Assembly (NCBI GenBank): GCA_000002435.2 | Contig: CM018793.1 | Origin: Giardia intestinalis | Taxonomy: Eukaryota | DNA: 64,000 nt | Strand: one strand, 5' to 3' | Shown here: positions 25,712-48,567 of the stretch, piece by piece | Numbering within the stretch: position 1 is the first letter of the stretch | Layout: the number at the start of each line of letters is the position of its first letter | Made by a program: the position numbers and the translations under genes | The notes under the pieces: generated by a model | What the model was told of the DNA's origin: nothing | Seen by the model: only the letters and a program-made list of their open reading frames with translations | The model's database searches: none

Positions 25712-28700
25712 TATTTAGATTGGAATTTATTCAACACTCATTTTTAGATTAAAGATCAAGAGTAAAGGGTTGATAAGTTATGTTTCTAACGTTAGTCGTA
25801 TCTGTGCCTTGGCTCTATTGGCCTGTAATGTGGAGTATATGAAGCGTCGTGACATGGTATGCCAAGAAGCGCCCGGCGAGCAGGTATGCGCTAATAACCA
25901 TGGAAAAAAGCACTAGGGCTCTAAGGAAAACATGACCACGCGCGCCTAAGTTTATGAGGGAATTGCCTAATAACAAGTCCATTAGAAGCAAATTGATCCG
26001 AAGGAATTCAAAGATGCCTTGAAAGACGAACCTTCCCTGATAAGCATGTTCATCCGATATCTAAAAGTGTTACTTAATATACGAATTCTGTGAGATAAAG
26101 GGTAAAGGGGGCACTTTCTTATAAGATATGAATCATGTACTAACTGCTACAGATTCTTCTGACCTGGAGATCCTATGCTAATGATCTTTACTATGTATTC
26201 ATTGTGACTCTCAGACCATGGTATGTTGATTTTCTTTGGCAGTCTTCCAGACATGCCTTACGACGCGGGCCTCTGCCTGCTGGCCCTTGCTGCGGGGGGA
26301 CGCCCTTGCCGTAGCGCCCTGGTGGCCCGCGTCGCCGCTGAGTGTCCGCCGGCGCGTAGAAGACGAGGCAGGCCGAAGACGGCCTCCGTTGCCGGACGGG
26401 CGACGCACGGAGAGCATCCTGCCTCTAGCGCTATGCGTTACAGCAGGCTCGGCGAGCTGCCCTGGTGACCTCTAGTCTGTCCAGGCCAGCTGCAAGAGCG
26501 GGGGACTCGAAGGAGACGAGCCTCGTATGTTGTGGGCAGATGACATCCCGGACTAGCGATAGGAGCATGCTATCTAAAGCCTGCTCTCGAGCTTTGTAGG
26601 AAGAGCCTGGGATCTGGATGGCAGAGGCGCGATCGTGCAGATGCTTCGGGCCAAGCGGTGTGTTCGCCTAGCCATTGAGTGTGCTGAGTACCTCGATGCT
26701 GGTCACAGCTACCGGAGACTCGCAACAGAGACAGGCTCTGTGCAGTTGCTTAAGAGTTCTCGGTGCAGCATCAGATTCCCCGTACTCTTTCGATGACCAA
26801 GTACAGGCTGCCCGATGGTTCTAGATTTCAAAAGAAGAGGCTCCTCTGCCGGTTTGCCTATCTCGCACGACGGAGAGAGCAGTTGGGGCTATAAGGAACA
26901 TCGCAAGCGGCACTACTCAGGCCTGCTGGCTCCCTATAAGCACAGAAGAGAACCTTTTAGGTTCTGAGAGCATCTCGGGGGTCCTTGCCATACGCAGCAC
27001 GATAATTGAGAGCATCGCCTCCATACTGCAACTAGCAGGGTAGCTCTGCCGCAAGTGCCGAACCTCCCCAAAGAGAAGAATATAGTGATGAGACATCTGG
27101 ATCTCTGCACATTCTGAGAGCCTGGCTTGAGATACTAGCTGCTGTGCCCTTCGGTATCTCTGTGAAGCAACGGGCACTGCCACGGTGCCCGTTCACTGTC
27201 CCTGTGCATTCTTCGGCACGTGACAAAAACCACACAAAAGAGGCTGCTACTGGCTATGATATTGCCGATAGAAATTCTGACACCATTTACTTCGACCGAG
27301 TGAAGAGCGCAGGCCCGCTTCTATTCTCTCATAGAGGAACTTGGCTCTAGAGCTTTGATCTCTGTTCACACCTATTGGCCCCTGTGATCTGGCTTTTGTT
27401 CGGGGACGCGCAGATAGACCGTTTACAATAGATCGCGTCCGCGGCTTCTAGCCTTCGACAAAAGCTTAGCGACCGCCCAAGTATGTCCAAAGGACAATAG
27501 CAAAGAGAAAGCATACATGCTCAGATACACGGTCACACTGGATGTACTCGACTTGCCTGACGACGGTGATAACCCAGCCATTCAAGCAGGGAATACTATG
27601 ACCGCGAGTATAGAAGAAGCACCCTATCCAAGGGTCTACACTTGCTGATGGCACGGTGGTGCCCGTCCAACCACTTTTCTGATCCGGACTGGAGTCCCTG
27701 CCCACCTCTCTGCGCTGCATGCTCTGTTATGCAAGGGTCTCTGCACAGAGTCCGCTTGCTCGGTAGGACCGGCCAGTCCAGCAAGGCCGCATGTAAGCAT
27801 CAGTAGAGCTAGCCTTCTACCTTCTGCATCGATAAAGATCCGCCTTGAAAGGAGATGGATCGGGTACTAGAAGAGTAGACTGTCCGTCGAGATATCCGCG
27901 TCTTGAATTCCGTGGCACTATAGGTAGTGACTCTCGATCTCGATCTCGGTCACGGAAGACCGAGAGGAGGAGTGGCCCTCGCAGAGAAATCACCGAAAAG
28001 GCTGGGCCGCAACAGCGTTAGAAGCTACATTGCACAGCCTTCCAGCGTATGTTCAGCATGTCACCAGCGACGACTAGCGGGGACTACAAGATGGCGCGCT
28101 GCAGCAAATCTCGGCCTGCCGTCAGGTCTCTTGGGGCCTGGGTCTGACATGTGCGCATCAACATCAGAAGGATATGCATGCGTACTACAAGGGCCTAGAA
28201 AAGATCGTTGAGGATACTCTGCCGGGTATTAAAGATAAGAGGGAGCCATTTGCGAAACTAGCGTGCACGTAATATAGTCGGGTGGGCACATACTGGATAC
28301 CTGTTAAGAGAACGCTGCTTTATGCTAACGCATTTTTGGGACCACAGAAGAGCACTTCGGACGATTCTAATAAGGGCACAACCATACTCGTCAGGGCTGG
28401 CAGATGCTTCTCTTAAGTCTAGGCACTTCGAGACATCTCAAGCGATCGAGCAAAGAGCTCTGGGATTTTGTACTAAGGTTATGCTTAGACTGAAAGAGGC
28501 GAAGGAAGGATCCACAAACCATAGTGTTGTCTGTTAATAGAAGGATGCCTTGGGCAGACTCTCTAGAACATCTATCAGCGTGTATCAAAACTGATCTGCA
28601 GCATAGTACGGCTTAATTTTAGGAACTTCTGTCCAGGCTATGGCATGCTAAATATAGTCACTACGTAAGAAGATTGGTTTTCAGGGTACCACATTGCGCG

Positions 28701-31390
28701 CAATACACAGTGTGGTTCATTGGAAAATTTGTGTCTAATCATTGTGGCAACAGGGCTTCCATCTTGGTAGGTCATTGTCTGGCCAGTAACAAGACTTGCT
28801 TTCGATTCAGAAAAATGAGCGTCTAGGAAAAAATCGCGCACTCCAATGTGCATAGACACTCCGCCCGGCCTATTTTCCTGGGCAGAGCCACCTGTTGGCG
28901 CCTGCGTTGCATATGCCAGAGTTGGAAGGGGCCTCGAAGAAGCCAGCAGCTCACCATGGCTATTGCTGAGGAGCTGGATCGGATCCTCTGTGGCCTGTGC
29001 TATGCTAGGGAAGAACAAGCTGAGGGACGCAAGATCTTAAGCAAGGGCCCGTTGTTCTTACCGCTACGACGGACTACATTAATCATTACGCTTGAGCCTT
29101 GATTACGTCCTTAAAGCAATACTATAGCATAGCAGCAGAGACTGTGAGAATGCTAACTGACCCTAGTAATATATGCTATTGCTAGTGCAGCCCCAGGAGT
29201 GACGTGTCCTTTCTATTCTGCTATGTTACTCTGCACTGTTGCGTGTCACTTCCCACGTCTGGGGCCATGGATCACAGCAGCGAGCCATTGGGCCGCTCGA
29301 AGATGTGCTTTAATTATTCCGAAGGTGCATGGCCTTCGTTATCTGTCTGGATCAGTAGATGAGCCAATATTCTGGCCATTGCGGCTAAAAGTTCCCACAT
29401 GATCTTTTGTGACCCAACAGTACACGACCAGTAGACAGCCAGATGGGTTATTGCCGGTCCATTCTCCACCCTGGGCTAGATGGGCGCGCATCCTCAGCAG
29501 AGTGGGCTCCCCTGGAACTTCTGTGGTCTCAGATCATTTAGAGCATTCTGGGAGCATCCTTGATTCAAACTTGCATTAGACAAGCACGAACCGTTACATG
29601 ACTCAGAGGATCTCTAACTGCTCGACTACCCTACAACCAATGGTCAAACAGGCATTACAATGAGCGCGCCGGAATATCGGTTAATAGCTGTAATAATTGT
29701 GTCATCGATAGTCATCTAGAACGCTACGCTGCAGCTAACATCAAGGAACGCACTTCTGGAAGTGCCGCAGCCCGTTCAGCCACGGCTTCTGCTACCCTCA
29801 GGCCTAGTCAAATTGCTTCGCCAGGACAGAGAGTCATATGACTCCACAGTAGGTAGCTATGCGGCTCTCACCAGGACACTCGGCTTAGGCCAGCAACTGA
29901 TTCAACTTCCCTAACACGGGAACGCATGTTGACCCACTTCGCAATACGCAGTATGGCATCTTTTGAGCGTCGTCTTTGCACTTTGATGCACGGGAGAAAG
30001 CTTCCTGTTTCTGGCTAATTGGCACAGTGTTCACCGTACACTACACCCAGACCCTGCTTAGTTTCTGTGCATAACGCTTATCAGTGCTAGCAGGCGCAAT
30101 GAGTCTGCTATGGGCCGGGCATTCGTGGAACTGTAGACTGGCACAACGATATTCCAACCGCCGTATACTTCTGTGGTCAGAAGGCCTGGACAAACATACG
30201 AACTAAGCACCGTCTCTTAGGCGTTACTGCAGTAGCAGATCGGGTAGAGAGGACGGGAGGAGACCTGGGCAGAGAATCAGACATGGATCCAATTGAGTTT
30301 GGCTGCAAGGGCTATAAAGACCGGGATCGTACAAACAGCAAACGAACTTCTCCAGTAAAAAATATGCAAGACGAAGCATGGGCCTGTGGGAGGGTGCCAC
30401 TCCTATGGTCAATTACGATTAGCTTAACTCATTAGGATGAATAGGACAGTTTCTTCAATGTAGCCCGCCTAATGAAAAGATAATGTGCTAAATACTGCTC
30501 CACAAATAGATTTGTGTAAGCAGCCATGCGTGGCGTAAGGTAATTACTTGTAAACAGATACAAGTAGGGAGATACGTTGCTAATTTTAACGGCCTGACTT
30601 TGCGGAAGGCAACTTAATACCTGTTATGCAGGGGGCAGCTGACTGATGATTTATGCAACCCTGTATTTGGAGAAAGATACCTTGTGAGGGTCAGATAGTT
30701 TTCAGCCATACGCAATCTGACACCAACCGGTAGATCCTCTGATTCTATCGCATTCTGGTCTACCTCTATCTCTTTGCGTCTCTTCCCATTACCTGGACGG
30801 CCTATCTTTTTGGATACATCATGGCAGCTTTCTAGGCCTGCAAGATGCCTCAAAGTTTCTGCTTGAAACTATAGTAATTCGTACCTCTCGATGACGGTGC
30901 GTACTAGAGCTGAGTACCAACTACATATTGTGGTGGTTGTCAACGGAAGCGATACTCTGCGTAGTATCTCTTAAGCTTGCCGTAACAGGCCCCATAGATA
31001 TAAAGGCCACATGTAGTCTCCAGAGAAGCCCTTGAAAGTATCTGTGTTTGGTGACACAACGCACCAGAAACGAAGGGGAACGCCAAAGCGTCGTATGTTG
31101 AGTCGAAATAAGCCAATCTAATGGCTAGGGGTTTGGAGGCTACTTGATGCATTAGTCGTACACGGATAACAAGGAGATCGGGCTTTCATGCGTACAGGAG
31201 TCACTATCTCGGTCAGCTACTGTCTTCTATCGTTTGGCTCTAGGCCCCTAGTCTGCACTCATTATGAAGGGCCCCCTGCATTCGCGGTATAGGATTTGCT
31301 TTGTGTTCAAGCCATTGTGATCCTTATGGATCTGCTGTTGAGGAAGACCGAGCGAGCAGCCACTAAAAACCATAATAAAGAAATAGGGTC

Positions 31391-31420
31391 TGTGATCTTT
31401 CCACGCAAGCCACCGCCACC
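31391..31420 (-). repeat. 30-nt inverted-terminus core of the retroelement relic
   Basis: On this strand it reads tgtgatctttccacgcaagccaccgccacc. It matches 26 of 30 positions with the reverse complement of 34542-34571. Confidence 0.7.
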
Positions 31421-32335
31421 CTGGGCAAGCGGGTATCTCCCACCCTTGCATGGCTGAGATCCACAATCCACAATCCAGAATCCAGAAATTGAAATCTGAA
31501 GTCTGAGATCGGATGTCTTCGATCTCGGCAGGAGGAGAAGAAGTTTTGTTCTGCCGCTCGGGAGTCTCTGCTGCTTCTCGCGGTGTCTTCTGAGGATTCA
31601 TCCCATCCTTTGGCTCGTCGGGGTCACTACCGTTTGGCACCAGTGAGCACACACTATCTCAGGGTCCTGCGTCAGTCGCGACGGCAAGCTTGGCCTTGAG
31701 GGAGCAGCTGACCCTGGTCATGTACTCCAAGGTCTTGGTTCTCTATGATGAAGATCGCATGCCATGAACTTCGGGATATCAACCTCTAGTTCTTCGAGGT
31801 GCTTCTTCGTCTTCTCACGGATTGTATCATCGGTCCCGAGTATGATCAGAGGGTGCGCTCCCCGTGCGCCTCTATCTTGGAGTCATAGTACGCGTTTGTG
31901 GATGTCGATGGAGCACTCCCATGTGTTGTGTCGGGGAAGAGGCTCGGCCCTCTGCTCATGGATCGCAGTGCGCTCTTGCAGGTGGTCCGTCACTCAGCAC
32001 GAGATCATGTCGACGCTCACCCTGTGCAGTGCGTCTAGCTCAGTGATGTGTGGGCTCCATCCATCCTCGCATCACATGGTGTGCTTGGGGTGATGCTTCG
32101 GTCTGTCGAGGCGTCATCCAAAGCATCACGAGCGATCGGGACCGGTTCGCCGTTAGGCCGTCTCTCTCTACAACCGGCGCCCGTCTACTCGAGGGTGTCA
32201 GGCACTGCCAGCTGCTGTGGCAGATGCCCGGCAGGTGGCCCAGGTCACCACTCTTCGGTGCGGGCAGGATCAGTCCACTTCTGTCAGCCAGACACTCCAA
32301 GGATCCCGACTTGCCTGTCGAGGGATTCACATGGG

Positions 32336-32769
32336 TCACGTGTGGGTCCATCCTGGCCAGCTTGGCGAGTGATTGGTGCCATCACTGGCTTCGGCCCTCG
32401 GTTGTCTTGGGGGATCCTTGAGACCGGCCAGGAAGGAGGCCTCCTGCCCCTCAGTGCTCCTACACCCAGTGCTGACCGTCAAGCCATGTTGCTTCGCCAG
32501 GCCTGTCGCCTCTGTGACTGTCCCCATCGCGTCACTGTCGTCAATATAGACACTGAGTGGGGCATCTCCTTCAGTTCCTGGTGAGCAGGTTCTGTACCAC
32601 GCCGCACAGAAGCATGCGCAGGGCCCTGAGGGACCGAGTCCAGATACCTCGTGTGTCGCGGCCGAAGGAAGGCCTCGACGCAGCTCCTCGGGATGAGGGG
32701 TACACTTGCCTGGGCGAGGCCGTCTGCTGTTGGGGCTCTCGTTATGTCGAGCAAGACCGCTGTGCCCAT
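32336..32769 (-). pseudogene. Reverse transcriptase core, frameshifted (left-arm copy)
   Basis: Mirror of 41859-42292. V-Y-I-D-D is encoded at 32537-32551 on the minus strand. Confidence 0.55.
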
Positions 32770-34541
32770 CAGTCTGCGTCTCCCTGCACCGTGCGAACGC
32801 CGCCCATGTACATCCAGTGGAACGCAGTCTGCTAGGTCTCGAGGAAGGCCAGGGTCTGGGTCTCCAAGCGGCTCGGGACTACCTTGTGAAGCGAATCATG
32901 ATCGTCTGCTGATCGTGGTTGTCCTGTCCCATTCTTGGGGAAGGGCCAGGCGGAACCGTACGGAGCACGCATCCCATCCTATGGATCGCACTGAGGATCT
33001 CGTTGAAGGCCTGTTTAGGGGCCCCGGAACGCCTGCACCCGGATGGACTCGCCAGCGCAGGCCCGGGGACTTCGAGCCCCGCGGACTGGCCGTCCGTGCT
33101 CTCCGATGGCTGAGGGGGCTCTTGTCTCTCAGGGGCCAGGCCGTCCTGATCCGGCCCTCTGGATAGCAAGGTGCTGGTCGTCGGTGGCGCTGTCAGGGTG
33201 CAGCTCCCCCTCGAGGCGAGGCAGAGGCTGCAGGCCGGGCAGTAGGATGGTGATGCCGCTCCTCCGCTTCCCCGCTGTGTGAGCGAGGCGCGTCTCCTCG
33301 GCTCTCGACTGGAGCTCTGCGGGGTGGTAGGTACCCTCCCCTGAGCACGTTCGCACGACGGGTGCTGAAGAGGACGTCCTTCTCTATCCCCGTTGCCCCA
33401 CTCAGTAGCACCCTACATCCGGTGTCTGTGCTGTAGTGCGTCTGGACGGCCTCGCCGCGGAGGGTCTTCGCGCAGGACAGGCACGTGCTCTTCCGCTCCT
33501 ACTACTTTGGCGTTCGCCCGGTGCCGCTCCAGCGCAGAGTGCTCCTCTCCGTCAGGTTCCTAAGGTCCTCGTTCTCGCTGTGATACCTGATCTATCCCTC
33601 TTGAGGGGTGGGGTTCACGGTGCACTGGTGCGTGTCCGGGGCGACGTCTCCCTTGTAGAGTTCTGCAGGTTCCACGACCCTCTGGGGATAGCCAGCGACT
33701 GGGACCCCTGTTTGAGGCTAGGGCTGGCCTGGCTCCACCGGGCCGCGAACAACTCAAGGGCGCTCTGGTGTTGCTGGTCTCTCAACCGCACAGACTTGGC
33801 CTGTCCTGGCAGATAGTTGGGGTCGTCCCTGAGCGCCTCCGAGGAGTCTGGGAAGCGCTCCGGTCCGATGCTTTCTGTCCGGGGCATCATGGCAGGCAAT
33901 GGTGAGGGCCCACGCGGGACACCGCGCTCGGGCGCCGAGACCTGGTGCGTGGGCTGGCACCGTCTGTCTGTCGCAAGGCTGCAGAAGGAGCTCAGACGGA
34001 GAGGGTTTCCCAAACGTGTTGCTCGAGGCCCTTCGAGAGTCGAAGGAGGCGTGATAGGAGACGCAGAAGTGGCCGAGTGGCTCCTCGTGCTGTGGATGAT
34101 GTAGGAGGTCCTCAAGGGTACAGGCCCGTAAGTGAACTCCGACATTCGTGAGCCAGTTCGTATAGTCAGTGATTGACCCTGTCGGGGCCAGGTGGTCTCC
34201 TGGAGAAACGGTCATTGAGAGCCTTGCCACCACGCAATCGTTCTTTGACACAGGGAGGTTCGGTGGGGGGAAGAGAATGTGGGAGTTCCCTTACTCTCGT
34301 CTCCTGGCCTCTTCGTTCACGTTGCTGGGCGCTTTCTTGGCGTTTCGCTCCAGGGTCCTAGGGACCTTCCTCAGTGGCGCCTCATGGGAGCAGTCGCGGA
34401 TTTATTGCTTACTGGGGACTGGACATCGGGGCCGTCAGCTTTCTGTTTGGGCTTCTTCTCCCGCCGGAACTGGACGACGTCTGATTTCTGAACTCTGGGT
34501 TCAGGTCTTGGCTGGAAGCAAGCAAAGGCCTGCTTGCCTAA

Positions 34542-34571
34542 GGTGGTGGTGGCTTGCACGGGAAGATCACA
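34542..34571 (+). repeat. 30-nt inverted-terminus core of the retroelement relic
   Basis: It reads ggtggtggtggcttgcacgggaagatcaca. It pairs as an inverted repeat with 31391-31420 about 3.1 kb away. Confidence 0.7.
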
Positions 34572-34666
34572 CTCAGACAGCAGGTGACAACCTCACCCCA
34601 ATGAAACAGAGAGAGTAAACCTTTTATAATAAAGAACTAGCCTTCATTATCATCGGCCGCTCGCTG

Positions 34667-34761
34667 TGGGGCGTGGTGCAGCGGGAGCATACTGACACTT
34701 GACATATTTGGCCGGTTTCCGGTTGTTGAGTCACGACCCGGGTTCGACTCCCGGCGCCTCA
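34667..34761 (+). tRNA. tRNA-like Pol III gene or pseudogene, isotype undetermined (left-arm copy)
   Basis: The acceptor stem TGGGGCG/CGCCTCA has 7 bp including one G-U. The D-arm is GTGC-AGCGGGA-GCAT. The T-arm CCGGG-TTCGACT-CCCGG is canonical, giving a perfect B box GGTTCGACTCC, and there is an A-box-like TGGTGCAGCGG. The discriminator is G, and a TTTT run lies at 34772-34775. The gene is 95 nt because ~26-31 extra nt in the anticodon region form their own hairpin (GGCCGG-TTT-CCGGTT). I could not place a clean 7-nt anticodon loop with U33. Confidence 0.45.
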
Positions 34762-35796
34762 GTTGTTCGCCTTTTCCCCTTCTGTCCTTTCTCCGCATCC
34801 CTGAGAGGCCACGTTTTAATCTTATTAACCTTAATAGGTGCCCAGTCCACAGGTCGGCGCCTCTGCATGCGGCGAGAAGGCTACTAGAAATCGCCGGTAA
34901 TGCCGATCATTCCAACCTGCTCTATGGCGCGGCGGTAGCAGAGCCTGTCTGCGCCACGGCCACCCATCACATCGCAAATTGCGACTACTCGTTAAGGAGC
35001 AGCGCTTCTGGAAGTATGTTTGCATGGAAGTGGCCACGCTGCAATGATCTCAAGTCCCTAGGATTGCTCTCTTTTCAGGACAGAACAAAGTTACGGAAGA
35101 TGAAGCCAGATATGCTGATGAATTCTGCAACAGACCCCTTGTGTCTGTAAGCAAAGCATCGACACCTATGTGCTCTGGGCATTGTGATATGAGGCGTAGA
35201 AAAGCCGCAATGCATCCCAAGTCACGGTGTATTGCTCTCGAACTGCCCGCTTAGTTACTCCACGACGTGAGGTAACATATGGCTCTTCACGCTTATATAC
35301 TAATCGGTGTAAAGTCGCGCTACAGAACCTCTGCGCTAATGTTGGCGATCTCCTAAAACCGCAACCCACCAGTTGAGGCAGCGAGCCTGAAAGCCAGACC
35401 ACCATGGTATCCCGGCGTGTGCTGTGTGCCGCTTGCTGAGGCTTTCACTATGGATTCTGTGCTCAAGTGGAATCGTACTCACCTTTACTTTGAGCCGGCC
35501 GAGACTCCGTGCCCTAGCCACTGCAGGCTAGAATAGTACCCCGTCGGCCGGCCGGGCGGAGAGCACCTAGCTACATGAGTCGTTGCCTTAGAGAATTGGT
35601 ATACTGCTTTGTTCAGTCATTCTTACTACTTTGTCGTTTTCAAGTAAAACATGCTTTAAATGGCTCTGGTAATTGTAATGTGTTCCCAACCGTAAATATT
35701 ACTTGTTAGCTTTCATTTTCGCAAGTATCTAGCTTCGACATTTTTGTACCATTACCATCGAAAATAATTTGAGTAGCTTTGCTTTCATAAAAATCC

Positions 35797-38700
35797 ATGA
35801 CAATGCACGACCCTGACCAGCTGAGTCAACCAACTGAACCCCTACGAGTGGACCAATGTAATCCTGTGGCGTGCGGTGTCATTGGAACTGTTTATTCTCT
35901 TAAAAATTATCCTGACGCTGTGGTCAGGGAAATCAAAATCGGCGACCTTCCTCCGGATATTATGACAGCTTTGGAGACAGAAATAGACATTCTGCCTCGA
36001 CTCGCACATCAAAACGTGCTTGAGTATCATCAAGTTTTAACAGCCAAGGATGTAGTCTACATTTGCTTACCCCGTTATTGTTGGACCCTCTCTGCAATAA
36101 TTGCTATTTCCGATATAAAAAACAAGCGTTTTTCCGAGCAGACTGTCTGCATTATATTTGGTCAGATTGCTTCTGCTCTGGCATATCTCCACGATCCAAA
36201 TAAATGTGATATCAAGGGAAATCCCCTCCCAGTCTTTATTCACCAGGATCTCAAGCCAGACAGTATCTTGGTCAGCGCAGACGAAACTCAATATGTTATT
36301 ACAGACTTTGGATTCTGTAGAGAAGACCTAGATAGAGGATCTGTTGTTTTGGGTGTGCCTGAATATGCTGCTCCCGAGGCGCTTATTCTTAAAAAGTATA
36401 CTTCTGCCTCTGATGTATGGAGCTTAGGCTGTATTGTTTATGAACTTATAACTTTAAAAAGGCCTAACTTTGTAGGAACTCGCAAACCAGCCGAAGTTTT
36501 TGTCGATGATTGGAGTCCTAACTTAAGTGCTATCAAGAGTACGTTTCTGAAAGAAATGCTCAGACGCATTTTTGTTGTTAAGCCTGAAAATCGTGTCTCG
36601 GCTAAGGAGCTTGCAGAAATACTTGAGACGTGGAAAAGCTCACGCTATATAATTAGAGAGCTTAAGCACAAGGAGCAACAAATAAAGTGGAATCAGATGC
36701 TCATCGATCGTTCTAAGAGATTAGAGGAAAATTGCAGACAGTTGAAAGCAACGCTAGAAGATTCCAAAGCAGAAGTTAGAAACCAAATAGATACTATAGC
36801 TAAACTTGAAAACCAGAGTAACGAGTCTTCTTTGAGAATTAAACTATTGGAAAAGGAGATTGCTACCTTGAGAAGAACTATAGCATATCTAAGTCCCACT
36901 ACTGAAAGCGCCTCGTCAACTACTCTTATAGATGCTGTGAAAAACAATAGTATTGATTCAGTTAAGTCATTGGTCCAAAACTTAGAAGGACTTGGCCTCC
37001 GTGACGCTACGGATACGACAACTCTTATGTGCGCTGTTCACCAAGGAAAGTCTGAACTTGTTGAGCTTTTGGCAACTCTAAAAATGGGACTGCAGGATAA
37101 TAATGATAGAAATTCTCTTATGCATACTGCGATTCATGATTATCTCCAGGTTTCCAAGATTCTTCTCCCACATGAAACAGAGATTAAAGATGGCAACAAT
37201 AACACAGCCGCGATTCTCACTGCAAAGGAAAGGCATGGAGATATTGTGGATCTTTTCACTTTCTTGAACAAGGATGGTACTACAGCGCTTATGCAGGCAG
37301 TGCTACAAAATAATATTAAAGCAATAGATGTCCTCATTCCCCTCCAAAAGGGCGCCAGAGATAATAAGGGCATGACGGCACTAATGTATGCTGCTGCGAA
37401 TGGTCATACAGATGCCGTGCGTTTTCTTCTTGAGTACGAGAAAGGAATAAAGGACAAAAATGGTCATAATGCACTTTGCCATGCTCTTAAAAATAATCAC
37501 CTAGAAATTGCTAATAGTATTCTTCAGCATGATGATCCTACTGACACCGAAGGAGTTACAGCACTTATGCGAGCAGCCGCGAATAACAATGTAGCAATTG
37601 CAAGGCTACTTTTGCCAATACAAAAATGCCTAAAAGACAATAAGGGAGCAACTGCACTCATGCACGCAGCTAAAGCAGGTAGACTAGAGATGGTTGACTT
37701 GCTCGCTGAGTACGAGTCCAAGTGCAGGGATAATAATGGTCAGACCGCACTTATGTATGCAGCTTCTAATGGCTATTTTCAAGCAACTAAGGCTCTTCTA
37801 AAGTACGAGGTACAAATGAAGGATAATTATAATAACACTGCGCTCTCCTTGGCTATTAAACACAGACACACAGAGATAACTAAGCTTCTTCTTTGGTACG
37901 AAAACGATCCTTCTTGGACTGCTCTCATGTGCGCTGCGGTTACTGGTGATTTTGAAACAGCTAGGAGGCATATCAGTGAAAGAGATCTAGTGGACAATAA
38001 TGGGAGAACAGCTTTAGATCTTGCTAAGGAAGCAGGACATGGATCAGTTATTGAAATTCTTGACCATCTGGATGAAAAGGGTTTTACAGCTCTCATGCGG
38101 GCTGCTGCGCAAGGAGACCTGGATATGGTAAAGGTTCTCATTCCTGTTCAGAAGGGCATGCAAACTGTTACAGATGGAGAATGCTCTTGTAAAAATGATA
38201 AGTACTGGTTCAATAAGGGCACAACGGCACTTATGCTTGCTGCCCACTATGGTCATGTAGACATTGTAAAGGAGCTTGTGAAGCATGAGTACAATGTGCA
38301 CGATACTCGTGGCCGAACTGCTCTCATGATAGCCGCTGCATGGGGGAAGATTAATGTTGTAAGGGATCTTATACCTTTTCAAAAAGGGATGCAAACCACT
38401 GGTGATGGAGAATACGAAGCTGGGGAGCAGGGATTTTGGTTTAATAAAGGCTCTACAGCACTTATATTTGCCTCAAGACATTGCAGACTAAACGTTATCA
38501 AAGAACTTATAGAACATGAAAGCCGAATGCATGATGAGTTTGGTGGAACCGCTCTCATGTGGGCTGCACGACATGGACACACCCAAGCTATTTCACTCCT
38601 AATGGAGAGGGAAGGTCGAATGCAGAATGAACGAGGGTGGACAGCTCTGATGTGGGCTGTGCATAGTATTAAGTTAGAGGCTGTGAAGCTACTAATAGAG

Positions 38701-38907: not shown

Positions 38908-39865
38908 CCTTTTCGATAGCAGCGTCAATCCTCCACTTCGAGACATCAAAAAACATGCTGAGTTCGTTAGCTTTGGTTTCTCTGCCTTTATTAAAGCTAT
39001 AGCACATTTAAATAGAGAAGTGTTGAAGTAGTTCTCTAAGGCAACGACTCATGTAGCTAGGTGCTCTCCGCCCGGCCGGCCGACGGGGTACTATTCTAGC
39101 CTGCAGTGGCTAGGGCACGGAGTCTCGGCCGGCTCAAAGTAAAGGTGAGTACGATTCCACTTGAGCACAGAATCCATAGTGAAAGCCTCAGCAAGCGGCA
39201 CACAGCACACGCCGGGATACCATGGTGGTCTGGCTTTCAGGCTCGCTGCCTCAACTGGTGGGTTGCGGTTTTAGGAGATCGCCAACATTAGCGCAGAGGT
39301 TCTGTAGCGCGACTTTACACCGATTAGTATATAAGCGTGAAGAGCCATATGTTACCTCACGTCGTGGAGTAACTAAGCGGGCAGTTCGAGAGCAATACAC
39401 CGTGACTTGGGATGCATTGCGGCTTTTCTACGCCTCATATCACAATGCCCAGAGCACATAGGTGTCGATGCTTTGCTTACAGACACAAGGGGTCTGTTGC
39501 AGAATTCATCAGCATATCTGGCTTCATCTTCCGTAACTTTGTTCTGTCCTGAAAAGAGAGCAATCCTAGGGACTTGAGATCATTGCAGCGTGGCCACTTC
39601 CATGCAAACATACTTCCAGAAGCGCTGCTCCTTAACGAGTAGTCGCAATTTGCGATGTGATGGGTGGCCGTGGCGCAGACAGGCTCTGCTACCGCCGCGC
39701 CATAGAGCAGGTTGGAATGATCGGCATTACCGGCGATTTCTAGTAGCCTTCTCGCCGCATGCAGAGGCGCCGACCTGTGGACTGGGCACCTATTAAGGTT
39801 AATAAGATTAAAACGTGGCCTCTCAGGGATGCGGAGAAAGGACAGAAGGGGAAAAGGCGAACAAC

Positions 39866-39960
39866 TGAGGCGCCGGGAGTCGAACCCGGGTCGTGACTCA
39901 ACAACCGGAAACCGGCCAAATATGTCAAGTGTCAGTATGCTCCCGCTGCACCACGCCCCA
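39866..39960 (-). tRNA. tRNA-like Pol III gene or pseudogene, isotype undetermined (right-arm copy)
   Basis: Exact mirror of 34667-34761. Its 5' end at 39960 lies 1-2 nt from the retroelement terminus at 39962. Confidence 0.45.
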
Positions 39961-40055
39961 CAGCGAGCGGCCGATGATAATGAAGGCTAGTTCTTTATTA
40001 TAAAAGGTTTACTCTCTCTGTTTCATTGGGGTGAGGTTGTCACCTGCTGTCTGAG

Positions 40056-40085
40056 TGTGATCTTCCCGTGCAAGCCACCACCACC
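40056..40085 (-). repeat. 30-nt inverted-terminus core of the retroelement relic
   Basis: Mirror of 34542-34571. It pairs as an inverted repeat with 43208-43237. Confidence 0.7.
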
Positions 40086-41858
40086 TTAGGCAAGCAGGCC
40101 TTTGCTTGCTTCCAGCCAAGACCTGAACCCAGAGTTCAGAAATCAGACGTCGTCCAGTTCCGGCGGGAGAAGAAGCCCAAACAGAAAGCTGACGGCCCCG
40201 ATGTCCAGTCCCCAGTAAGCAATAAATCCGCGACTGCTCCCATGAGGCGCCACTGAGGAAGGTCCCTAGGACCCTGGAGCGAAACGCCAAGAAAGCGCCC
40301 AGCAACGTGAACGAAGAGGCCAGGAGACGAGAGTAAGGGAACTCCCACATTCTCTTCCCCCCACCGAACCTCCCTGTGTCAAAGAACGATTGCGTGGTGG
40401 CAAGGCTCTCAATGACCGTTTCTCCAGGAGACCACCTGGCCCCGACAGGGTCAATCACTGACTATACGAACTGGCTCACGAATGTCGGAGTTCACTTACG
40501 GGCCTGTACCCTTGAGGACCTCCTACATCATCCACAGCACGAGGAGCCACTCGGCCACTTCTGCGTCTCCTATCACGCCTCCTTCGACTCTCGAAGGGCC
40601 TCGAGCAACACGTTTGGGAAACCCTCTCCGTCTGAGCTCCTTCTGCAGCCTTGCGACAGACAGACGGTGCCAGCCCACGCACCAGGTCTCGGCGCCCGAG
40701 CGCGGTGTCCCGCGTGGGCCCTCACCATTGCCTGCCATGATGCCCCGGACAGAAAGCATCGGACCGGAGCGCTTCCCAGACTCCTCGGAGGCGCTCAGGG
40801 ACGACCCCAACTATCTGCCAGGACAGGCCAAGTCTGTGCGGTTGAGAGACCAGCAACACCAGAGCGCCCTTGAGTTGTTCGCGGCCCGGTGGAGCCAGGC
40901 CAGCCCTAGCCTCAAACAGGGGTCCCAGTCGCTGGCTATCCCCAGAGGGTCGTGGAACCTGCAGAACTCTACAAGGGAGACGTCGCCCCGGACACGCACC
41001 AGTGCACCGTGAACCCCACCCCTCAAGAGGGATAGATCAGGTATCACAGCGAGAACGAGGACCTTAGGAACCTGACGGAGAGGAGCACTCTGCGCTGGAG
41101 CGGCACCGGGCGAACGCCAAAGTAGTAGGAGCGGAAGAGCACGTGCCTGTCCTGCGCGAAGACCCTCCGCGGCGAGGCCGTCCAGACGCACTACAGCACA
41201 GACACCGGATGTAGGGTGCTACTGAGTGGGGCAACGGGGATAGAGAAGGACGTCCTCTTCAGCACCCGTCGTGCGAACGTGCTCAGGGGAGGGTACCTAC
41301 CACCCCGCAGAGCTCCAGTCGAGAGCCGAGGAGACGCGCCTCGCTCACACAGCGGGGAAGCGGAGGAGCGGCATTCACCATCCTACTGCCCGGCCTGCAG
41401 CCTCTGCCTCGCCTCGAGGGGGAGCTGCACCCTGACAGCGCCACCGACGACCAGCACCTTGCTATCCAGAGGGCCGGATCAGGACGGCCTGGCCCCTGAG
41501 AGACAAGAGCCCCCTCAGCCATCGGAGAGCACGGACGGCCAGTCCGCGGGGCTCGAAGTCCCCGGGCCTGCGCTGGCGAGTCCATCCGGGTGCAGGCGTT
41601 CCGGGGCCCCTAAACAGGCCTTCAACGAGATCCTCAGTGCGATCCATAGGATGGGATGCGTGCTCCGTACGGTTCCGCCTGGCCCTTCCCCAAGAATGGG
41701 ACAGGACAACCACGATCAGCAGACGATCATGATTCGCTTCACAAGGTAGTCCCGAGCCGCTTGGAGACCCAGACCCTGGCCTTCCTCGAGACCTAGCAGA
41801 CTGCGTTCCACTGGATGTACATGGGCGGCGTTCGCACGGTGCAGGGAGACGCAGACTG

Positions 41859-42292
41859 ATGGGCACAGCGGTCTTGCTCGACATAACGAGAGCCCCAACA
41901 GCAGACGGCCTCGCCCAGGCAAGTGTACCCCTCATCCCGAGGAGCTGCGTCGAGGCCTTCCTTCGGCCGCGACACACGAGGTATCTGGACTCGGTCCCTC
42001 AGGGCCCTGCGCATGCTTCTGTGCGGCGTGGTACAGAACCTGCTCACCAGGAACTGAAGGAGATGCCCCACTCAGTGTCTATATTGACGACAGTGACGCG
42101 ATGGGGACAGTCACAGAGGCGACAGGCCTGGCGAAGCAACATGGCTTGACGGTCAGCACTGGGTGTAGGAGCACTGAGGGGCAGGAGGCCTCCTTCCTGG
42201 CCGGTCTCAAGGATCCCCCAAGACAACCGAGGGCCGAAGCCAGTGATGGCACCAATCACTCGCCAAGCTGGCCAGGATGGACCCACACGTGA
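41859..42292 (+). pseudogene. Reverse transcriptase core, frameshifted (right-arm copy)
   Basis: Frame 0 gives LLDITRA...PLIPRSCVEAFLRPRHTRYLDSVPQGPAHAS. Frame 2 gives LSVYIDDSDAMGTVTEATGLAKQHGLTVSTGCRSTEGQEASFLAGLKD and then TGA. The spacings from F-to-PQG and from PQG-to-YIDD match LTR/DIRS-type RTs as I remember them. The distance from YIDD to TEAS is ~150 codons, as expected for RT to RNase H. Confidence 0.55.
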
Positions 42293-43207
42293 CCCATGTG
42301 AATCCCTCGACAGGCAAGTCGGGATCCTTGGAGTGTCTGGCTGACAGAAGTGGACTGATCCTGCCCGCACCGAAGAGTGGTGACCTGGGCCACCTGCCGG
42401 GCATCTGCCACAGCAGCTGGCAGTGCCTGACACCCTCGAGTAGACGGGCGCCGGTTGTAGAGAGAGACGGCCTAACGGCGAACCGGTCCCGATCGCTCGT
42501 GATGCTTTGGATGACGCCTCGACAGACCGAAGCATCACCCCAAGCACACCATGTGATGCGAGGATGGATGGAGCCCACACATCACTGAGCTAGACGCACT
42601 GCACAGGGTGAGCGTCGACATGATCTCGTGCTGAGTGACGGACCACCTGCAAGAGCGCACTGCGATCCATGAGCAGAGGGCCGAGCCTCTTCCCCGACAC
42701 AACACATGGGAGTGCTCCATCGACATCCACAAACGCGTACTATGACTCCAAGATAGAGGCGCACGGGGAGCGCACCCTCTGATCATACTCGGGACCGATG
42801 ATACAATCCGTGAGAAGACGAAGAAGCACCTCGAAGAACTAGAGGTTGATATCCCGAAGTTCATGGCATGCGATCTTCATCATAGAGAACCAAGACCTTG
42901 GAGTACATGACCAGGGTCAGCTGCTCCCTCAAGGCCAAGCTTGCCGTCGCGACTGACGCAGGACCCTGAGATAGTGTGTGCTCACTGGTGCCAAACGGTA
43001 GTGACCCCGACGAGCCAAAGGATGGGATGAATCCTCAGAAGACACCGCGAGAAGCAGCAGAGACTCCCGAGCGGCAGAACAAAACTTCTTCTCCTCCTGC
43101 CGAGATCGAAGACATCCGATCTCAGACTTCAGATTTCAATTTCTGGATTCTGGATTGTGGATTGTGGATCTCAGCCATGCAAGGGTGGGAGATACCCGCT
43201 TGCCCAG

Positions 43208-43237
43208 GGTGGCGGTGGCTTGCGTGGAAAGATCACA
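43208..43237 (+). repeat. 30-nt inverted-terminus core of the retroelement relic
   Basis: It reads ggtggcggtggcttgcgtggaaagatcaca. It matches 26 of 30 positions with the reverse complement of 40056-40085. Confidence 0.7.
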
Positions 43238-46200
43238 GACCCTATTTCTTTATTATGGTTTTTAGTGGCTGCTCGCTCGGTCTTCCTCAACAGCAGATCC
43301 ATAAGGATCACAATGGCTTGAACACAAAGCAAATCCTATACCGCGAATGCAGGGGGCCCTTCATAATGAGTGCAGACTAGGGGCCTAGAGCCAAACGATA
43401 GAAGACAGTAGCTGACCGAGATAGTGACTCCTGTACGCATGAAAGCCCGATCTCCTTGTTATCCGTGTACGACTAATGCATCAAGTAGCCTCCAAACCCC
43501 TAGCCATTAGATTGGCTTATTTCGACTCAACATACGACGCTTTGGCGTTCCCCTTCGTTTCTGGTGCGTTGTGTCACCAAACACAGATACTTTCAAGGGC
43601 TTCTCTGGAGACTACATGTGGCCTTTATATCTATGGGGCCTGTTACGGCAAGCTTAAGAGATACTACGCAGAGTATCGCTTCCGTTGACAACCACCACAA
43701 TATGTAGTTGGTACTCAGCTCTAGTACGCACCGTCATCGAGAGGTACGAATTACTATAGTTTCAAGCAGAAACTTTGAGGCATCTTGCAGGCCTAGAAAG
43801 CTGCCATGATGTATCCAAAAAGATAGGCCGTCCAGGTAATGGGAAGAGACGCAAAGAGATAGAGGTAGACCAGAATGCGATAGAATCAGAGGATCTACCG
43901 GTTGGTGTCAGATTGCGTATGGCTGAAAACTATCTGACCCTCACAAGGTATCTTTCTCCAAATACAGGGTTGCATAAATCATCAGTCAGCTGCCCCCTGC
44001 ATAACAGGTATTAAGTTGCCTTCCGCAAAGTCAGGCCGTTAAAATTAGCAACGTATCTCCCTACTTGTATCTGTTTACAAGTAATTACCTTACGCCACGC
44101 ATGGCTGCTTACACAAATCTATTTGTGGAGCAGTATTTAGCACATTATCTTTTCATTAGGCGGGCTACATTGAAGAAACTGTCCTATTCATCCTAATGAG
44201 TTAAGCTAATCGTAATTGACCATAGGAGTGGCACCCTCCCACAGGCCCATGCTTCGTCTTGCATATTTTTTACTGGAGAAGTTCGTTTGCTGTTTGTACG
44301 ATCCCGGTCTTTATAGCCCTTGCAGCCAAACTCAATTGGATCCATGTCTGATTCTCTGCCCAGGTCTCCTCCCGTCCTCTCTACCCGATCTGCTACTGCA
44401 GTAACGCCTAAGAGACGGTGCTTAGTTCGTATGTTTGTCCAGGCCTTCTGACCACAGAAGTATACGGCGGTTGGAATATCGTTGTGCCAGTCTACAGTTC
44501 CACGAATGCCCGGCCCATAGCAGACTCATTGCGCCTGCTAGCACTGATAAGCGTTATGCACAGAAACTAAGCAGGGTCTGGGTGTAGTGTACGGTGAACA
44601 CTGTGCCAATTAGCCAGAAACAGGAAGCTTTCTCCCGTGCATCAAAGTGCAAAGACGACGCTCAAAAGATGCCATACTGCGTATTGCGAAGTGGGTCAAC
44701 ATGCGTTCCCGTGTTAGGGAAGTTGAATCAGTTGCTGGCCTAAGCCGAGTGTCCTGGTGAGAGCCGCATAGCTACCTACTGTGGAGTCATATGACTCTCT
44801 GTCCTGGCGAAGCAATTTGACTAGGCCTGAGGGTAGCAGAAGCCGTGGCTGAACGGGCTGCGGCACTTCCAGAAGTGCGTTCCTTGATGTTAGCTGCAGC
44901 GTAGCGTTCTAGATGACTATCGATGACACAATTATTACAGCTATTAACCGATATTCCGGCGCGCTCATTGTAATGCCTGTTTGACCATTGGTTGTAGGGT
45001 AGTCGAGCAGTTAGAGATCCTCTGAGTCATGTAACGGTTCGTGCTTGTCTAATGCAAGTTTGAATCAAGGATGCTCCCAGAATGCTCTAAATGATCTGAG
45101 ACCACAGAAGTTCCAGGGGAGCCCACTCTGCTGAGGATGCGCGCCCATCTAGCCCAGGGTGGAGAATGGACCGGCAATAACCCATCTGGCTGTCTACTGG
45201 TCGTGTACTGTTGGGTCACAAAAGATCATGTGGGAACTTTTAGCCGCAATGGCCAGAATATTGGCTCATCTACTGATCCAGACAGATAACGAAGGCCATG
45301 CACCTTCGGAATAATTAAAGCACATCTTCGAGCGGCCCAATGGCTCGCTGCTGTGATCCATGGCCCCAGACGTGGGAAGTGACACGCAACAGTGCAGAGT
45401 AACATAGCAGAATAGAAAGGACACGTCACTCCTGGGGCTGCACTAGCAATAGCATATATTACTAGGGTCAGTTAGCATTCTCACAGTCTCTGCTGCTATG
45501 CTATAGTATTGCTTTAAGGACGTAATCAAGGCTCAAGCGTAATGATTAATGTAGTCCGTCGTAGCGGTAAGAACAACGGGCCCTTGCTTAAGATCTTGCG
45601 TCCCTCAGCTTGTTCTTCCCTAGCATAGCACAGGCCACAGAGGATCCGATCCAGCTCCTCAGCAATAGCCATGGTGAGCTGCTGGCTTCTTCGAGGCCCC
45701 TTCCAACTCTGGCATATGCAACGCAGGCGCCAACAGGTGGCTCTGCCCAGGAAAATAGGCCGGGCGGAGTGTCTATGCACATTGGAGTGCGCGATTTTTT
45801 CCTAGACGCTCATTTTTCTGAATCGAAAGCAAGTCTTGTTACTGGCCAGACAATGACCTACCAAGATGGAAGCCCTGTTGCCACAATGATTAGACACAAA
45901 TTTTCCAATGAACCACACTGTGTATTGCGCGCAATGTGGTACCCTGAAAACCAATCTTCTTACGTAGTGACTATATTTAGCATGCCATAGCCTGGACAGA
46001 AGTTCCTAAAATTAAGCCGTACTATGCTGCAGATCAGTTTTGATACACGCTGATAGATGTTCTAGAGAGTCTGCCCAAGGCATCCTTCTATTAACAGACA
46101 ACACTATGGTTTGTGGATCCTTCCTTCGCCTCTTTCAGTCTAAGCATAACCTTAGTACAAAATCCCAGAGCTCTTTGCTCGATCGCTTGAGATGTCTCGA

Positions 46201-48567
46201 AGTGCCTAGACTTAAGAGAAGCATCTGCCAGCCCTGACGAGTATGGTTGTGCCCTTATTAGAATCGTCCGAAGTGCTCTTCTGTGGTCCCAAAAATGCGT
46301 TAGCATAAAGCAGCGTTCTCTTAACAGGTATCCAGTATGTGCCCACCCGACTATATTACGTGCACGCTAGTTTCGCAAATGGCTCCCTCTTATCTTTAAT
46401 ACCCGGCAGAGTATCCTCAACGATCTTTTCTAGGCCCTTGTAGTACGCATGCATATCCTTCTGATGTTGATGCGCACATGTCAGACCCAGGCCCCAAGAG
46501 ACCTGACGGCAGGCCGAGATTTGCTGCAGCGCGCCATCTTGTAGTCCCCGCTAGTCGTCGCTGGTGACATGCTGAACATACGCTGGAAGGCTGTGCAATG
46601 TAGCTTCTAACGCTGTTGCGGCCCAGCCTTTTCGGTGATTTCTCTGCGAGGGCCACTCCTCCTCTCGGTCTTCCGTGACCGAGATCGAGATCGAGAGTCA
46701 CTACCTATAGTGCCACGGAATTCAAGACGCGGATATCTCGACGGACAGTCTACTCTTCTAGTACCCGATCCATCTCCTTTCAAGGCGGATCTTTATCGAT
46801 GCAGAAGGTAGAAGGCTAGCTCTACTGATGCTTACATGCGGCCTTGCTGGACTGGCCGGTCCTACCGAGCAAGCGGACTCTGTGCAGAGACCCTTGCATA
46901 ACAGAGCATGCAGCGCAGAGAGGTGGGCAGGGACTCCAGTCCGGATCAGAAAAGTGGTTGGACGGGCACCACCGTGCCATCAGCAAGTGTAGACCCTTGG
47001 ATAGGGTGCTTCTTCTATACTCGCGGTCATAGTATTCCCTGCTTGAATGGCTGGGTTATCACCGTCGTCAGGCAAGTCGAGTACATCCAGTGTGACCGTG
47101 TATCTGAGCATGTATGCTTTCTCTTTGCTATTGTCCTTTGGACATACTTGGGCGGTCGCTAAGCTTTTGTCGAAGGCTAGAAGCCGCGGACGCGATCTAT
47201 TGTAAACGGTCTATCTGCGCGTCCCCGAACAAAAGCCAGATCACAGGGGCCAATAGGTGTGAACAGAGATCAAAGCTCTAGAGCCAAGTTCCTCTATGAG
47301 AGAATAGAAGCGGGCCTGCGCTCTTCACTCGGTCGAAGTAAATGGTGTCAGAATTTCTATCGGCAATATCATAGCCAGTAGCAGCCTCTTTTGTGTGGTT
47401 TTTGTCACGTGCCGAAGAATGCACAGGGACAGTGAACGGGCACCGTGGCAGTGCCCGTTGCTTCACAGAGATACCGAAGGGCACAGCAGCTAGTATCTCA
47501 AGCCAGGCTCTCAGAATGTGCAGAGATCCAGATGTCTCATCACTATATTCTTCTCTTTGGGGAGGTTCGGCACTTGCGGCAGAGCTACCCTGCTAGTTGC
47601 AGTATGGAGGCGATGCTCTCAATTATCGTGCTGCGTATGGCAAGGACCCCCGAGATGCTCTCAGAACCTAAAAGGTTCTCTTCTGTGCTTATAGGGAGCC
47701 AGCAGGCCTGAGTAGTGCCGCTTGCGATGTTCCTTATAGCCCCAACTGCTCTCTCCGTCGTGCGAGATAGGCAAACCGGCAGAGGAGCCTCTTCTTTTGA
47801 AATCTAGAACCATCGGGCAGCCTGTACTTGGTCATCGAAAGAGTACGGGGAATCTGATGCTGCACCGAGAACTCTTAAGCAACTGCACAGAGCCTGTCTC
47901 TGTTGCGAGTCTCCGGTAGCTGTGACCAGCATCGAGGTACTCAGCACACTCAATGGCTAGGCGAACACACCGCTTGGCCCGAAGCATCTGCACGATCGCG
48001 CCTCTGCCATCCAGATCCCAGGCTCTTCCTACAAAGCTCGAGAGCAGGCTTTAGATAGCATGCTCCTATCGCTAGTCCGGGATGTCATCTGCCCACAACA
48101 TACGAGGCTCGTCTCCTTCGAGTCCCCCGCTCTTGCAGCTGGCCTGGACAGACTAGAGGTCACCAGGGCAGCTCGCCGAGCCTGCTGTAACGCATAGCGC
48201 TAGAGGCAGGATGCTCTCCGTGCGTCGCCCGTCCGGCAACGGAGGCCGTCTTCGGCCTGCCTCGTCTTCTACGCGCCGGCGGACACTCAGCGGCGACGCG
48301 GGCCACCAGGGCGCTACGGCAAGGGCGTCCCCCCGCAGCAAGGGCCAGCAGGCAGAGGCCCGCGTCGTGAGGCGTATTCAGGAGAAGAGATCATCCTATG
48401 GCGGGACATGTGACTATATCATTTTCACGTGACAATGTCATCTTTTTTGTACCACCAAGGTTGCAGATCCATTAGTGCGTCTACTTTTTCTTTGTTAAGG
48501 CAAAACCTCATTGGCTCTTGAATTCCTTAGCGAATTTCCTTTTCACTTTGTATATTATTAACGCACA

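Follow-up and report, generated by a model that had tools for sequence, protein, structure and literature searches.

A conserved tRNA-like gene with an intron-like insert next to a retroelement relic in Giardia intestinalis

Introduction

The locus analysed here lies in a window of 64,000 nt from contig CM018793.1 of the Giardia intestinalis WB assembly GCA_000002435.2, on chromosome 5. Of ten long ORFs in the window, nine are identical throughout to proteins of WB C6 from a 4.02-Mb chromosome (KAE8305498 to KAE8305514). The locus contains a tRNA-like gene with surplus bases in its anticodon region, next to the relic of a retroelement, and it raises two questions: what kind of gene this is, and whether the element came to lie there because of it. 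A previous sequence-only reading of the window described a tRNA-type gene transcribed by Pol III, voiced doubt as to whether it was an intron-bearing tRNA, a disrupted tRNA or a tRNA-derived element, and likened the arrangement to retroelements that integrate next to Pol III start sites, such as Ty3 in yeast and the tRNA-targeting elements of Dictyostelium. The doubt was genuine, as the same gene is annotated as a 'tRNA-Gln' pseudogenic_transcript in WB (assemblage A) and as 'tRNA-Ser' in P15 (assemblage E). The gene is, thus, already annotated, and intron-bearing tRNAs are already known in Giardia: five intron-containing tRNAs were counted in P15 and seven in GS, while WB was reported to have 63 tRNA genes, with two predicted pseudogenes (PMC3091692).

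Results

The first copy of the gene runs from 34667 to 34762 on the plus strand, 96 nt with the discriminator base G34762 included, limits that rest on the Rfam tRNA family (RF00005), on ARAGORN with introns allowed (-i) and on the P15 orthologue. Read from the gene sequence, the acceptor stem has 7 bp (TGGGGCG/CGCCTCA) and the D-arm has the form GTGC-AGCGGGA-GCAT. An A-box-like stretch (34674-34685, plus strand) is contained in the proposed 5' exon, and the B box GGTTCGACTCC (34741-34751, plus strand) is located in the T-arm, within the proposed 3' exon. The conserved tertiary and promoter nucleotides U8, A14, G18, G19, A21, G53, T54, T55, C56, A58 and C61 are present, according to the sequence and its alignment with the model. 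Downstream, a TTTT run (34772..34775, plus strand) may act as the Pol III terminator; P15 does not share its position, and the WB/P15 alignment places a TTT there nearer to the gene. The stems, arms, promoter boxes and T-run on which the sequence-only reading had built its case at 34667-34761 were all found, with G34762 added. The same holds for the hairpin-bearing insertion that it had placed in the anticodon region, where about 24-26 surplus bases include a GGCCGG/CCGGTT hairpin and the Rfam alignment puts 31 nt at the model's 7-nt loop.

Default ARAGORN and a gathering-threshold Rfam scan of the whole window both missed the gene. With permissive filters, the Rfam tRNA model matched it over its full length (model positions 1-71) with 34.1 bits (E=1.5e-5), above the gathering score (GA) of 29 bits, so that the relaxed Infernal/Rfam search suggested earlier does return a tRNA call. 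ARAGORN -i likewise recovered the gene at 34667-34762. The P15 orthologue scored 34.4 bits, again with full-length model coverage; the permissive Rfam scan missed it in a 501-nt stretch and recovered it only with a 151-nt stretch. Unconstrained MFE folding did not distinguish the gene from shuffled sequences (z = -0.8 for the whole gene and -1.3 for the arm), and neither a search of a phage database nor a metagenome scan with the exons yielded a match. Together, the architecture and the model score support a tRNA-type gene, transcribed by Pol III, whose anticodon loop carries an intron-like insert.

The gene is present twice because it lies inside an inverted repeat with arms of 9.3 kb, the left at 26255..35595 and the right at 39032..48373, which enclose a unique centre of 3.4 kb (35596-39031). 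The second copy, at 39865..39960 on the minus strand (proposed intron 39899-39924), is the exact reverse complement of the first, as had been read from the letters; this match is far above chance, with 0 occurrences expected from shuffles. The arms differ by only one mismatch at the outer edge (26259) and a 1-nt indel at 33253 / 41374-41375 (GGTGATGCC versus GGTGAATGCC), which points either to very recent homogenisation or to an artefact of assembly polishing. The repeat itself is real, given that independent short-read contigs stop precisely at the boundaries of the arms and have inverted ends of 30 nt. Contigs of a relative with 87% identity also carry 30-nt inverted ends, indicating that the repeat is conserved, and the P15 centre is turned around with respect to the outer flank, the outcome that flip-flop recombination between the arms would produce. 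The centre contains an ORF of 1036 aa of the NEK-kinase/ankyrin type (35797-38907), whose cluster representative is found only in read-archive (Logan) assemblies and has no NCBI name.

The P15 contig ACVC01000656 spans the homologous arm, with the orthologue of the tRNA-like gene at positions 19300-19391 of the P15 locus (L007). The two lineages are identical over a 5' block (42/42 bases) and over a 3' block that includes six trailer bases (44/44), in flanks that retain 73% identity over the 41 nt upstream of the gene and 72% over the 789 nt downstream. At a background identity of 72%, the probability of finding 86 unchanged bases is approximately 5e-13. These blocks cover both proposed exons, tRNA positions 1-37 (34667..34702, plus strand, numbered from the end of the D stem) and 38-72 (34729..34761, plus strand), each 100% identical to P15, with the trailer bases GTTGTT included on the 3' side. 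The only part of the gene that differs is the central hairpin, 15 nt in WB versus 11 nt in P15 (variable block 34709-34723); the insert measures 26 nt in WB versus 22 nt in P15, and both retain the potential to form a hairpin.

Since all 86 bases are identical amid flanks at 72%, this alignment argues that the gene is under purifying selection, with the tip of the insert evolving freely. Likewise, a change confined to the central hairpin suggests an intron-like insert in a selected gene, and frozen exons around a variable insert that keeps its hairpin would be the pattern expected of a tRNA intron. The comparison is between two lineages with invariant exons and, hence, offers no covariation signal to read. 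Short-read contigs of assemblages B, C and D end at or near the repeat boundaries, short of the gene. The syntenic locus of G. muris contains neither a tRNA nor the repeat, and a concatenated six-frame query for spurious ORFs from other assemblages returned nothing.

A published table lists two tRNA-Gln genes of 96 nt each on chromosome 5, GL50803_t0050 (+) and t0051 (-), with 529 and 551 reads, respectively (PMC10253879). Their outer ends are 5293 bp apart, the plus-strand gene preceding the minus-strand one; length, orientation and spacing are those of the pair in the window, which corresponds to t0050 and t0051. In the GiardiaDB-derived tables of the same study, their biotype is pseudogenic_transcript, and P15 has two genes of 92 nt labelled tRNA-Ser, GLP15_4365 (ACVC01000656 4888-4979, minus strand; 428 reads) and GLP15_4341 (ACVC01000647 2534-2625, plus strand; 449 reads) (PMC10253879). 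GLP15_4365 coincides exactly with L007 19300-19391, and the gene is present in two copies in WB as well as in P15.

The small-RNA data that the sequence-only reading had recommended consulting do contain a processed 5' product. A 22-nt RNA, UGGGGCGUGGUGCAGCGGGAGC, named 'tsRNA-Gln, GL50803_t0051' in WB and 'tsRNA-Ser, GLP15_4341' in P15, was both sequenced and detected by qRT-PCR, with trophozoite Ct values of 26.4 in WB and 22.5 in P15 (PMC10253879). It is identical to the first 22 nt of the tRNA-like gene, starting at U1. In the vesicle libraries of WB and P15, this 5' fragment is the most abundant tRNA-derived species, and each copy of the gene yields about 4-6 times as many reads as the next tRNA (85 reads, tRNA-Pro, in WB; 121 in P15); among the tRNA-Gln entries of assemblage B, none is abundant (PMC10253879). 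All three assemblages contain further tRNA-Gln genes, with lengths of 83-99 nt, and for P15 a tRNA-Gln entry of 73 nt is listed in addition. A second inverted tRNA-Gln pair in WB, t0015 (-) and t0014 (+), of 95 nt, flanks the VSP AS8 gene outside the window (old WB chr5 4328510-4332001), and GS has tRNA-Gln pairs of 99 nt and 83 nt.

The WB label implies that the gene is a decaying tRNA-Gln pseudogene without function, which we consider improbable. Its biotype, pseudogenic_transcript, and the prediction of two pseudogenes among WB tRNA genes (PMC3091692) speak for such decay, as do a low Rfam score (34 bits), the missing U33 and a weakened anticodon stem. However, decay is difficult to reconcile with the agreement of assemblages A and E at all 86 bases, in a neighbourhood whose DNA has diverged by 28%, all the more so given that the aberrant positions themselves are conserved. 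Moreover, the gene is transcribed and 5'-processed in both WB and P15, and both have kept two copies.

The isotype depends on the register in which the anticodon arm is read. Numbering from the D stem gives a Gln register, with CUGAC at positions 27-31, the loop ACUUGA|...|A, the candidate anticodon TTG (UUG in the RNA; 34699-34701, plus strand, in the 5' exon) at positions 34-36 and A34702 at position 37. The 26-nt insert (34703..34728, plus strand; central hairpin GGCCGG-TTT-CCGGTT) would then sit at the canonical 37/38 intron position, with boundaries that are predicted from this numbering and with which its conserved ends are compatible. The register has its oddities: positions 32 and 33 read A32-C33, so that U33 is replaced by C, C27 is mismatched with C43 and the variable loop has 3 nt. 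Only four Watson-Crick pairs (UGAC/GUCA) form the anticodon stem, which falls short of a 5-bp stem with a 7-nt loop and U33. The Rfam alignment shifts the arm by one base to a Ser register (UGACA/AGUCA), which restores C32-U33 and gives the anticodon UGA, but mismatches A31 with A39, puts C at position 37 and requires one more base behind position 26; its posterior probabilities in the anticodon arm are only about 0.5. The labels Gln in WB and Ser in P15 match these two registers derived for the same exons. At the junction of 5' exon and insert, a direct repeat UGACA-CU-UGACA (34692-34704) allows either UGAC to pair with GUCA, and UUGA occurs at both ends of the insert (34699-34729); register and splice sites are, thus, ambiguous. 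The repeat at the junction may be a trace of the insert's origin.

A tRNA-Ser(UGA), with UGACA at 27-31 and a loop beginning CUUGAC, as the P15 annotation has it, is barely credible. In its favour, this register has the regular C32-U33 and was chosen by both the Rfam alignment and the P15 annotators, but position 37 would be C, A31 would face A39 and the WB annotation reads the same exons as Gln. Eukaryotic tRNA-Ser is defined by its long variable arm. In this gene, 3-4 nt separate the anticodon stem from the T stem and such an arm is absent, which excludes Ser by established identity rules. Treating the hairpin as a long variable arm of the Ser/Leu/Sec type was rejected, since 12 nt would lie between it and the T stem. 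The pair U1-A72 together with G73 resembles the identity set of E. coli tRNA-Gln. ARAGORN intron calls of Pro(tgg) in WB and Arg(tcg) in P15 were discarded because their anticodon bases are drawn from the hairpin that differs between assemblages. Rerunning ARAGORN after every possible deletion of the insert was uninformative, as nearly every deletion gives some 'tRNA'.

Splicing of eukaryotic pre-tRNAs involves a pair between anticodon loop and intron, with the 3' splice site in a 3-nt bulge. In both WB and P15, A32:U(-3) and C33:G(-4) could pair and close a 3-nt bulge, U(-2) G(-1) A38, at the predicted 3' splice site. A competing 8-bp helix would bury that site, and alternative long-hairpin folds of the anticodon arm are energetically competitive. 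A systematic scan for strict bulge-helix-bulge structures (two 3-nt bulges and a 4-bp helix) found no motif common to WB and P15 that leaves a sensible tRNA.

Upstream of the gene lies a dead, GC-rich retroelement relic of 3.24 kb (31387..34625, minus strand), mirrored in the other arm of the inverted repeat at 40002-43241. It is bounded by a 15-nt target-site duplication, with the left copy ATAATAAAGAAATAG at 31372..31386 (plus strand, from a repeat search) and the right copy ATAATAAAGAACTAG at 34626..34640 (plus strand), 27-41 nt upstream of the tRNA-like gene. P15 lacks the element at this site and has a single copy of the duplicated sequence, ATAATAAAGAAACAG, at L007 19258-19272. Bases 34626-34666 are host sequence common to WB and P15 and include a conserved TATA-like element, ATAATAAAGAA, which the right duplication copy also represents. 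The empty site and the duplication place the end of the element (34625) 41 nt upstream of the first base of the tRNA. The sequence-only reading was, therefore, right that a retroelement relic lies upstream, and its distance of 1-2 nt between gene and terminus did not hold.

Within the relic, a 43-nt inverted repeat at the left (31391..31433) is 84% complementary to one at the right (34529..34571), which is followed by a 54-nt tail (34572-34625) also carried by the P15 copy described below. The GC content of the relic is 60.5%, versus 51.2% in the rest of the arm, and a tandem repeat of ATCCACA (x3.7; 31459-31484) lies just within its left end. Its minus-strand open frames retain YADD-type remnants, 'VYIDD...GLTV...FLAG', and a related copy in P15 has the remnant 'LTAYADDTLIL'. 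Reverse transcriptase (RT) homology was not detected statistically, either by Pfam searches of the open segments of at least 100 aa in the arm and of the YADD-bearing ORFs or by sequence and profile searches of the PDB. GilD elements are described as dead and riddled with deletions, and their copies as occurring in gene-poor stretches beside VSP genes (PMC2861651). With an RT visible as motif remnants only, the relic nonetheless appears to match this dead family by its other features. Its inverted repeats likewise make it resemble Genie 2. Further short, decayed copies occur in Giardia assemblies and databases.

The related P15 copy is located at L007 ~15400-17480, has inverted repeats of ~137 nt and lies ~1.7 kb from the tRNA orthologue. 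The corresponding site in WB is empty (~29595-29687, versus L007 ~15399-17481), and the P15 insertion has a target-site duplication of approximately TTTTAACYACC. The different places within the arm indicate that members of the same family inserted independently in WB and P15 within one repeat arm. Between the two copies, the interior of the element is inverted, while the tail on the 3' side, ATGAAAYAGAGAG..TAAAC..TTTT, has the same orientation at the right end of both, which suggests that the interior was flipped between the element's own inverted repeats. About 1.16 kb of the WB element (33113-34272) is missing from the P15 copy.

That the Pol III machinery guided the element to the tRNA gene, in the manner of Ty3 in yeast or TRE5 in Dictyostelium, is quite improbable. 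TRE5 integrates ~48 bp upstream of its targets. Such guidance would be consistent with the position of the insertion, 27-41 nt ahead of a Pol III gene that stayed intact and expressed, and with its target-site duplication of 15 bp, but this is a single case, and the distance is 41 nt rather than 1-2 nt. The two copies examined share no fixed distance, with 41 nt in WB versus ~1.7 kb in P15; no tRNA gene other than the orthologue was found in the 21.5-kb P15 locus, and none adjoins the P15 element. In addition, the target is simply AT-rich, and GilD copies are described in gene-poor regions beside VSP genes (PMC2861651). Pol III targeting is, hence, not supported and is contradicted by the second copy, and with it falls the analogy drawn earlier with Ty3 and the Dictyostelium elements. 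We infer that the proximity of relic and gene is incidental: the retroelement would have inserted in one lineage, at an AT-rich site 27-41 nt ahead of the gene, and the target-site duplication would have restored the upstream element without damage to the gene.

Discussion

The most likely reading, to which we assign a probability of roughly 60%, is a functional gene transcribed by Pol III. Its transcript is processed at the 5' end, as the published small RNA demonstrates, and in this reading would undergo splicing at 37/38 and serve as an atypical tRNA-Gln(UUG). Transcription would be driven by the internal A and B boxes, bound by a TFIIIC-type factor and possibly aided by the conserved TATA-like element at -41 to -30, and would stop in the T-rich trailer. 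RNase P would cleave at U1, which is supported by the published 22-nt RNA beginning exactly there. The 26-nt insert (34703-34728) would be excised by the tRNA-splicing endonuclease and the exons joined by an RtcB-type ligase; a tRNA ligase of this type has been reported in Giardia (bioRxiv 10.64898/2026.08.16.745097). The predicted product is a 70-nt class-I tRNA with the anticodon loop A-C-U-U-G-A-A and the anticodon UUG, which would be aminoacylated with glutamine and used in translation.

Several observations weigh against a functional tRNA-Gln. C replaces U33 in the Gln register, and the anticodon stem has either four pairs and a C:C mismatch or, in the other register, a 2-nt 26 linker; C33, the four-pair stem and the 3-nt variable loop call efficient decoding by the product into question. 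The same exons were read as Ser(UGA) by the P15 annotators, the WB biotype is pseudogenic_transcript, in a genome with two predicted tRNA pseudogenes (PMC3091692), and the scan of WB and P15 found no strict bulge-helix-bulge motif. Furthermore, other tRNA-Gln genes (95 nt in WB and P15, 73 nt in P15) may make this one redundant for decoding.

These points lend some weight to a second possibility, which we regard as unlikely, that the gene derives from an intron-bearing tRNA-Gln and is maintained as a non-decoding tRNA-like RNA, its arm having degenerated to a long hairpin and its role being that of a precursor of the 22-nt 5' small RNA or a structural or regulatory one. The aberrant arm (C33, 4-bp stem), with two competing folds that turn it into one long hairpin common to WB and P15, would fit such a role, as would the other tRNA-Gln genes, the perfect conservation of the exons despite the pseudogene label in WB and the read counts (529/551 in WB and 428/449 in P15, ~4-6x per copy over the next tRNA). 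Nevertheless, fragment counts in small-RNA libraries are biased by modification and stability, assemblage B shows no abundant tRNA-Gln entry and no target or partner is known, while an excised intron would explain a variable tip between conserved insert ends at least equally well.

What remains of interest at this locus is modest: an annotation conflict, an anticodon arm that lacks U33 and is yet frozen, and an unusually abundant 5' fragment. For the most part, the matter is one of annotation hygiene, with one gene labelled Gln and given a pseudogene biotype in WB and labelled Ser in P15, and with default tRNA and Rfam scans missing a gene apparently frozen by selection that is the source of the top tRNA-derived small RNA in two assemblages. 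If this were the only Gln gene with a UUG anticodon, Giardia would decode CAA with a tRNA lacking U33, which would be of interest to tRNA specialists; should it turn out not to decode, the gene becomes a candidate for a dedicated small-RNA gene. The analysis also removes a tempting claim of Pol III-directed integration in an early-branching eukaryote.

Among known systems, the relic is closest to the dead non-LTR retrotransposons GilD and Genie 2 of Giardia (Arkhipova & Morrison 2001; Burke et al. 2002), to which we liken it by description, with RT represented only by the motif remnants YADD / GL..V / FLG. Like them, it is ~3 kb long, GC-rich, multi-copy, decayed by deletions and frameshifts and located in a gene-poor region, with internal or terminal inverted repeats (43 nt in WB, ~137 nt in P15) and a long, variable target-site duplication. 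It shares with Ty3 and TRE5-A a position upstream of a tRNA gene, a target-site duplication and a gene left functional. However, Ty3 integrates at the transcription start, whereas the end of the relic lies at -41 and recurs at no fixed distance. As for the insert, a short hairpin in the anticodon region is also found in archaeal-type bulge-helix-bulge introns, although WB and P15 share no 3-4-3 motif.

The closest likeness is to eukaryotic pre-tRNAs with an intron at 37/38, such as yeast pre-tRNA-Phe and pre-tRNA-Tyr. The likeness extends to the internal promoter, with its A and B boxes, and to the place of the insert, which measures 26 nt in WB (22 nt in P15) and is separated from the 3' side of the anticodon by a single base. 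It also covers the bulge of 3 nt at the 3' splice site, which a pair 32:(-3) could close, and an insert that evolves fast between frozen exons. Unlike these pre-tRNAs, the Giardia gene has C33 for U33 and a 4-bp anticodon stem, and its splicing is predicted. Introns in the Gln isotype are unusual elsewhere. Within Giardia, the same annotated isotype is shared by GL50803_t0014/t0015 (95 nt), the 83- and 99-nt genes of GS and GLP15_4021 of P15 (95 nt), whose lengths imply inserts of similar size. These other tRNA-Gln genes have the biotype 'trna', in contrast to the pseudogene label here, and their paralogy is suggested by annotation only. The t0015/t0014 pair, inverted and flanking a single gene (VSP AS8), has an architecture like that of the pair in the window.
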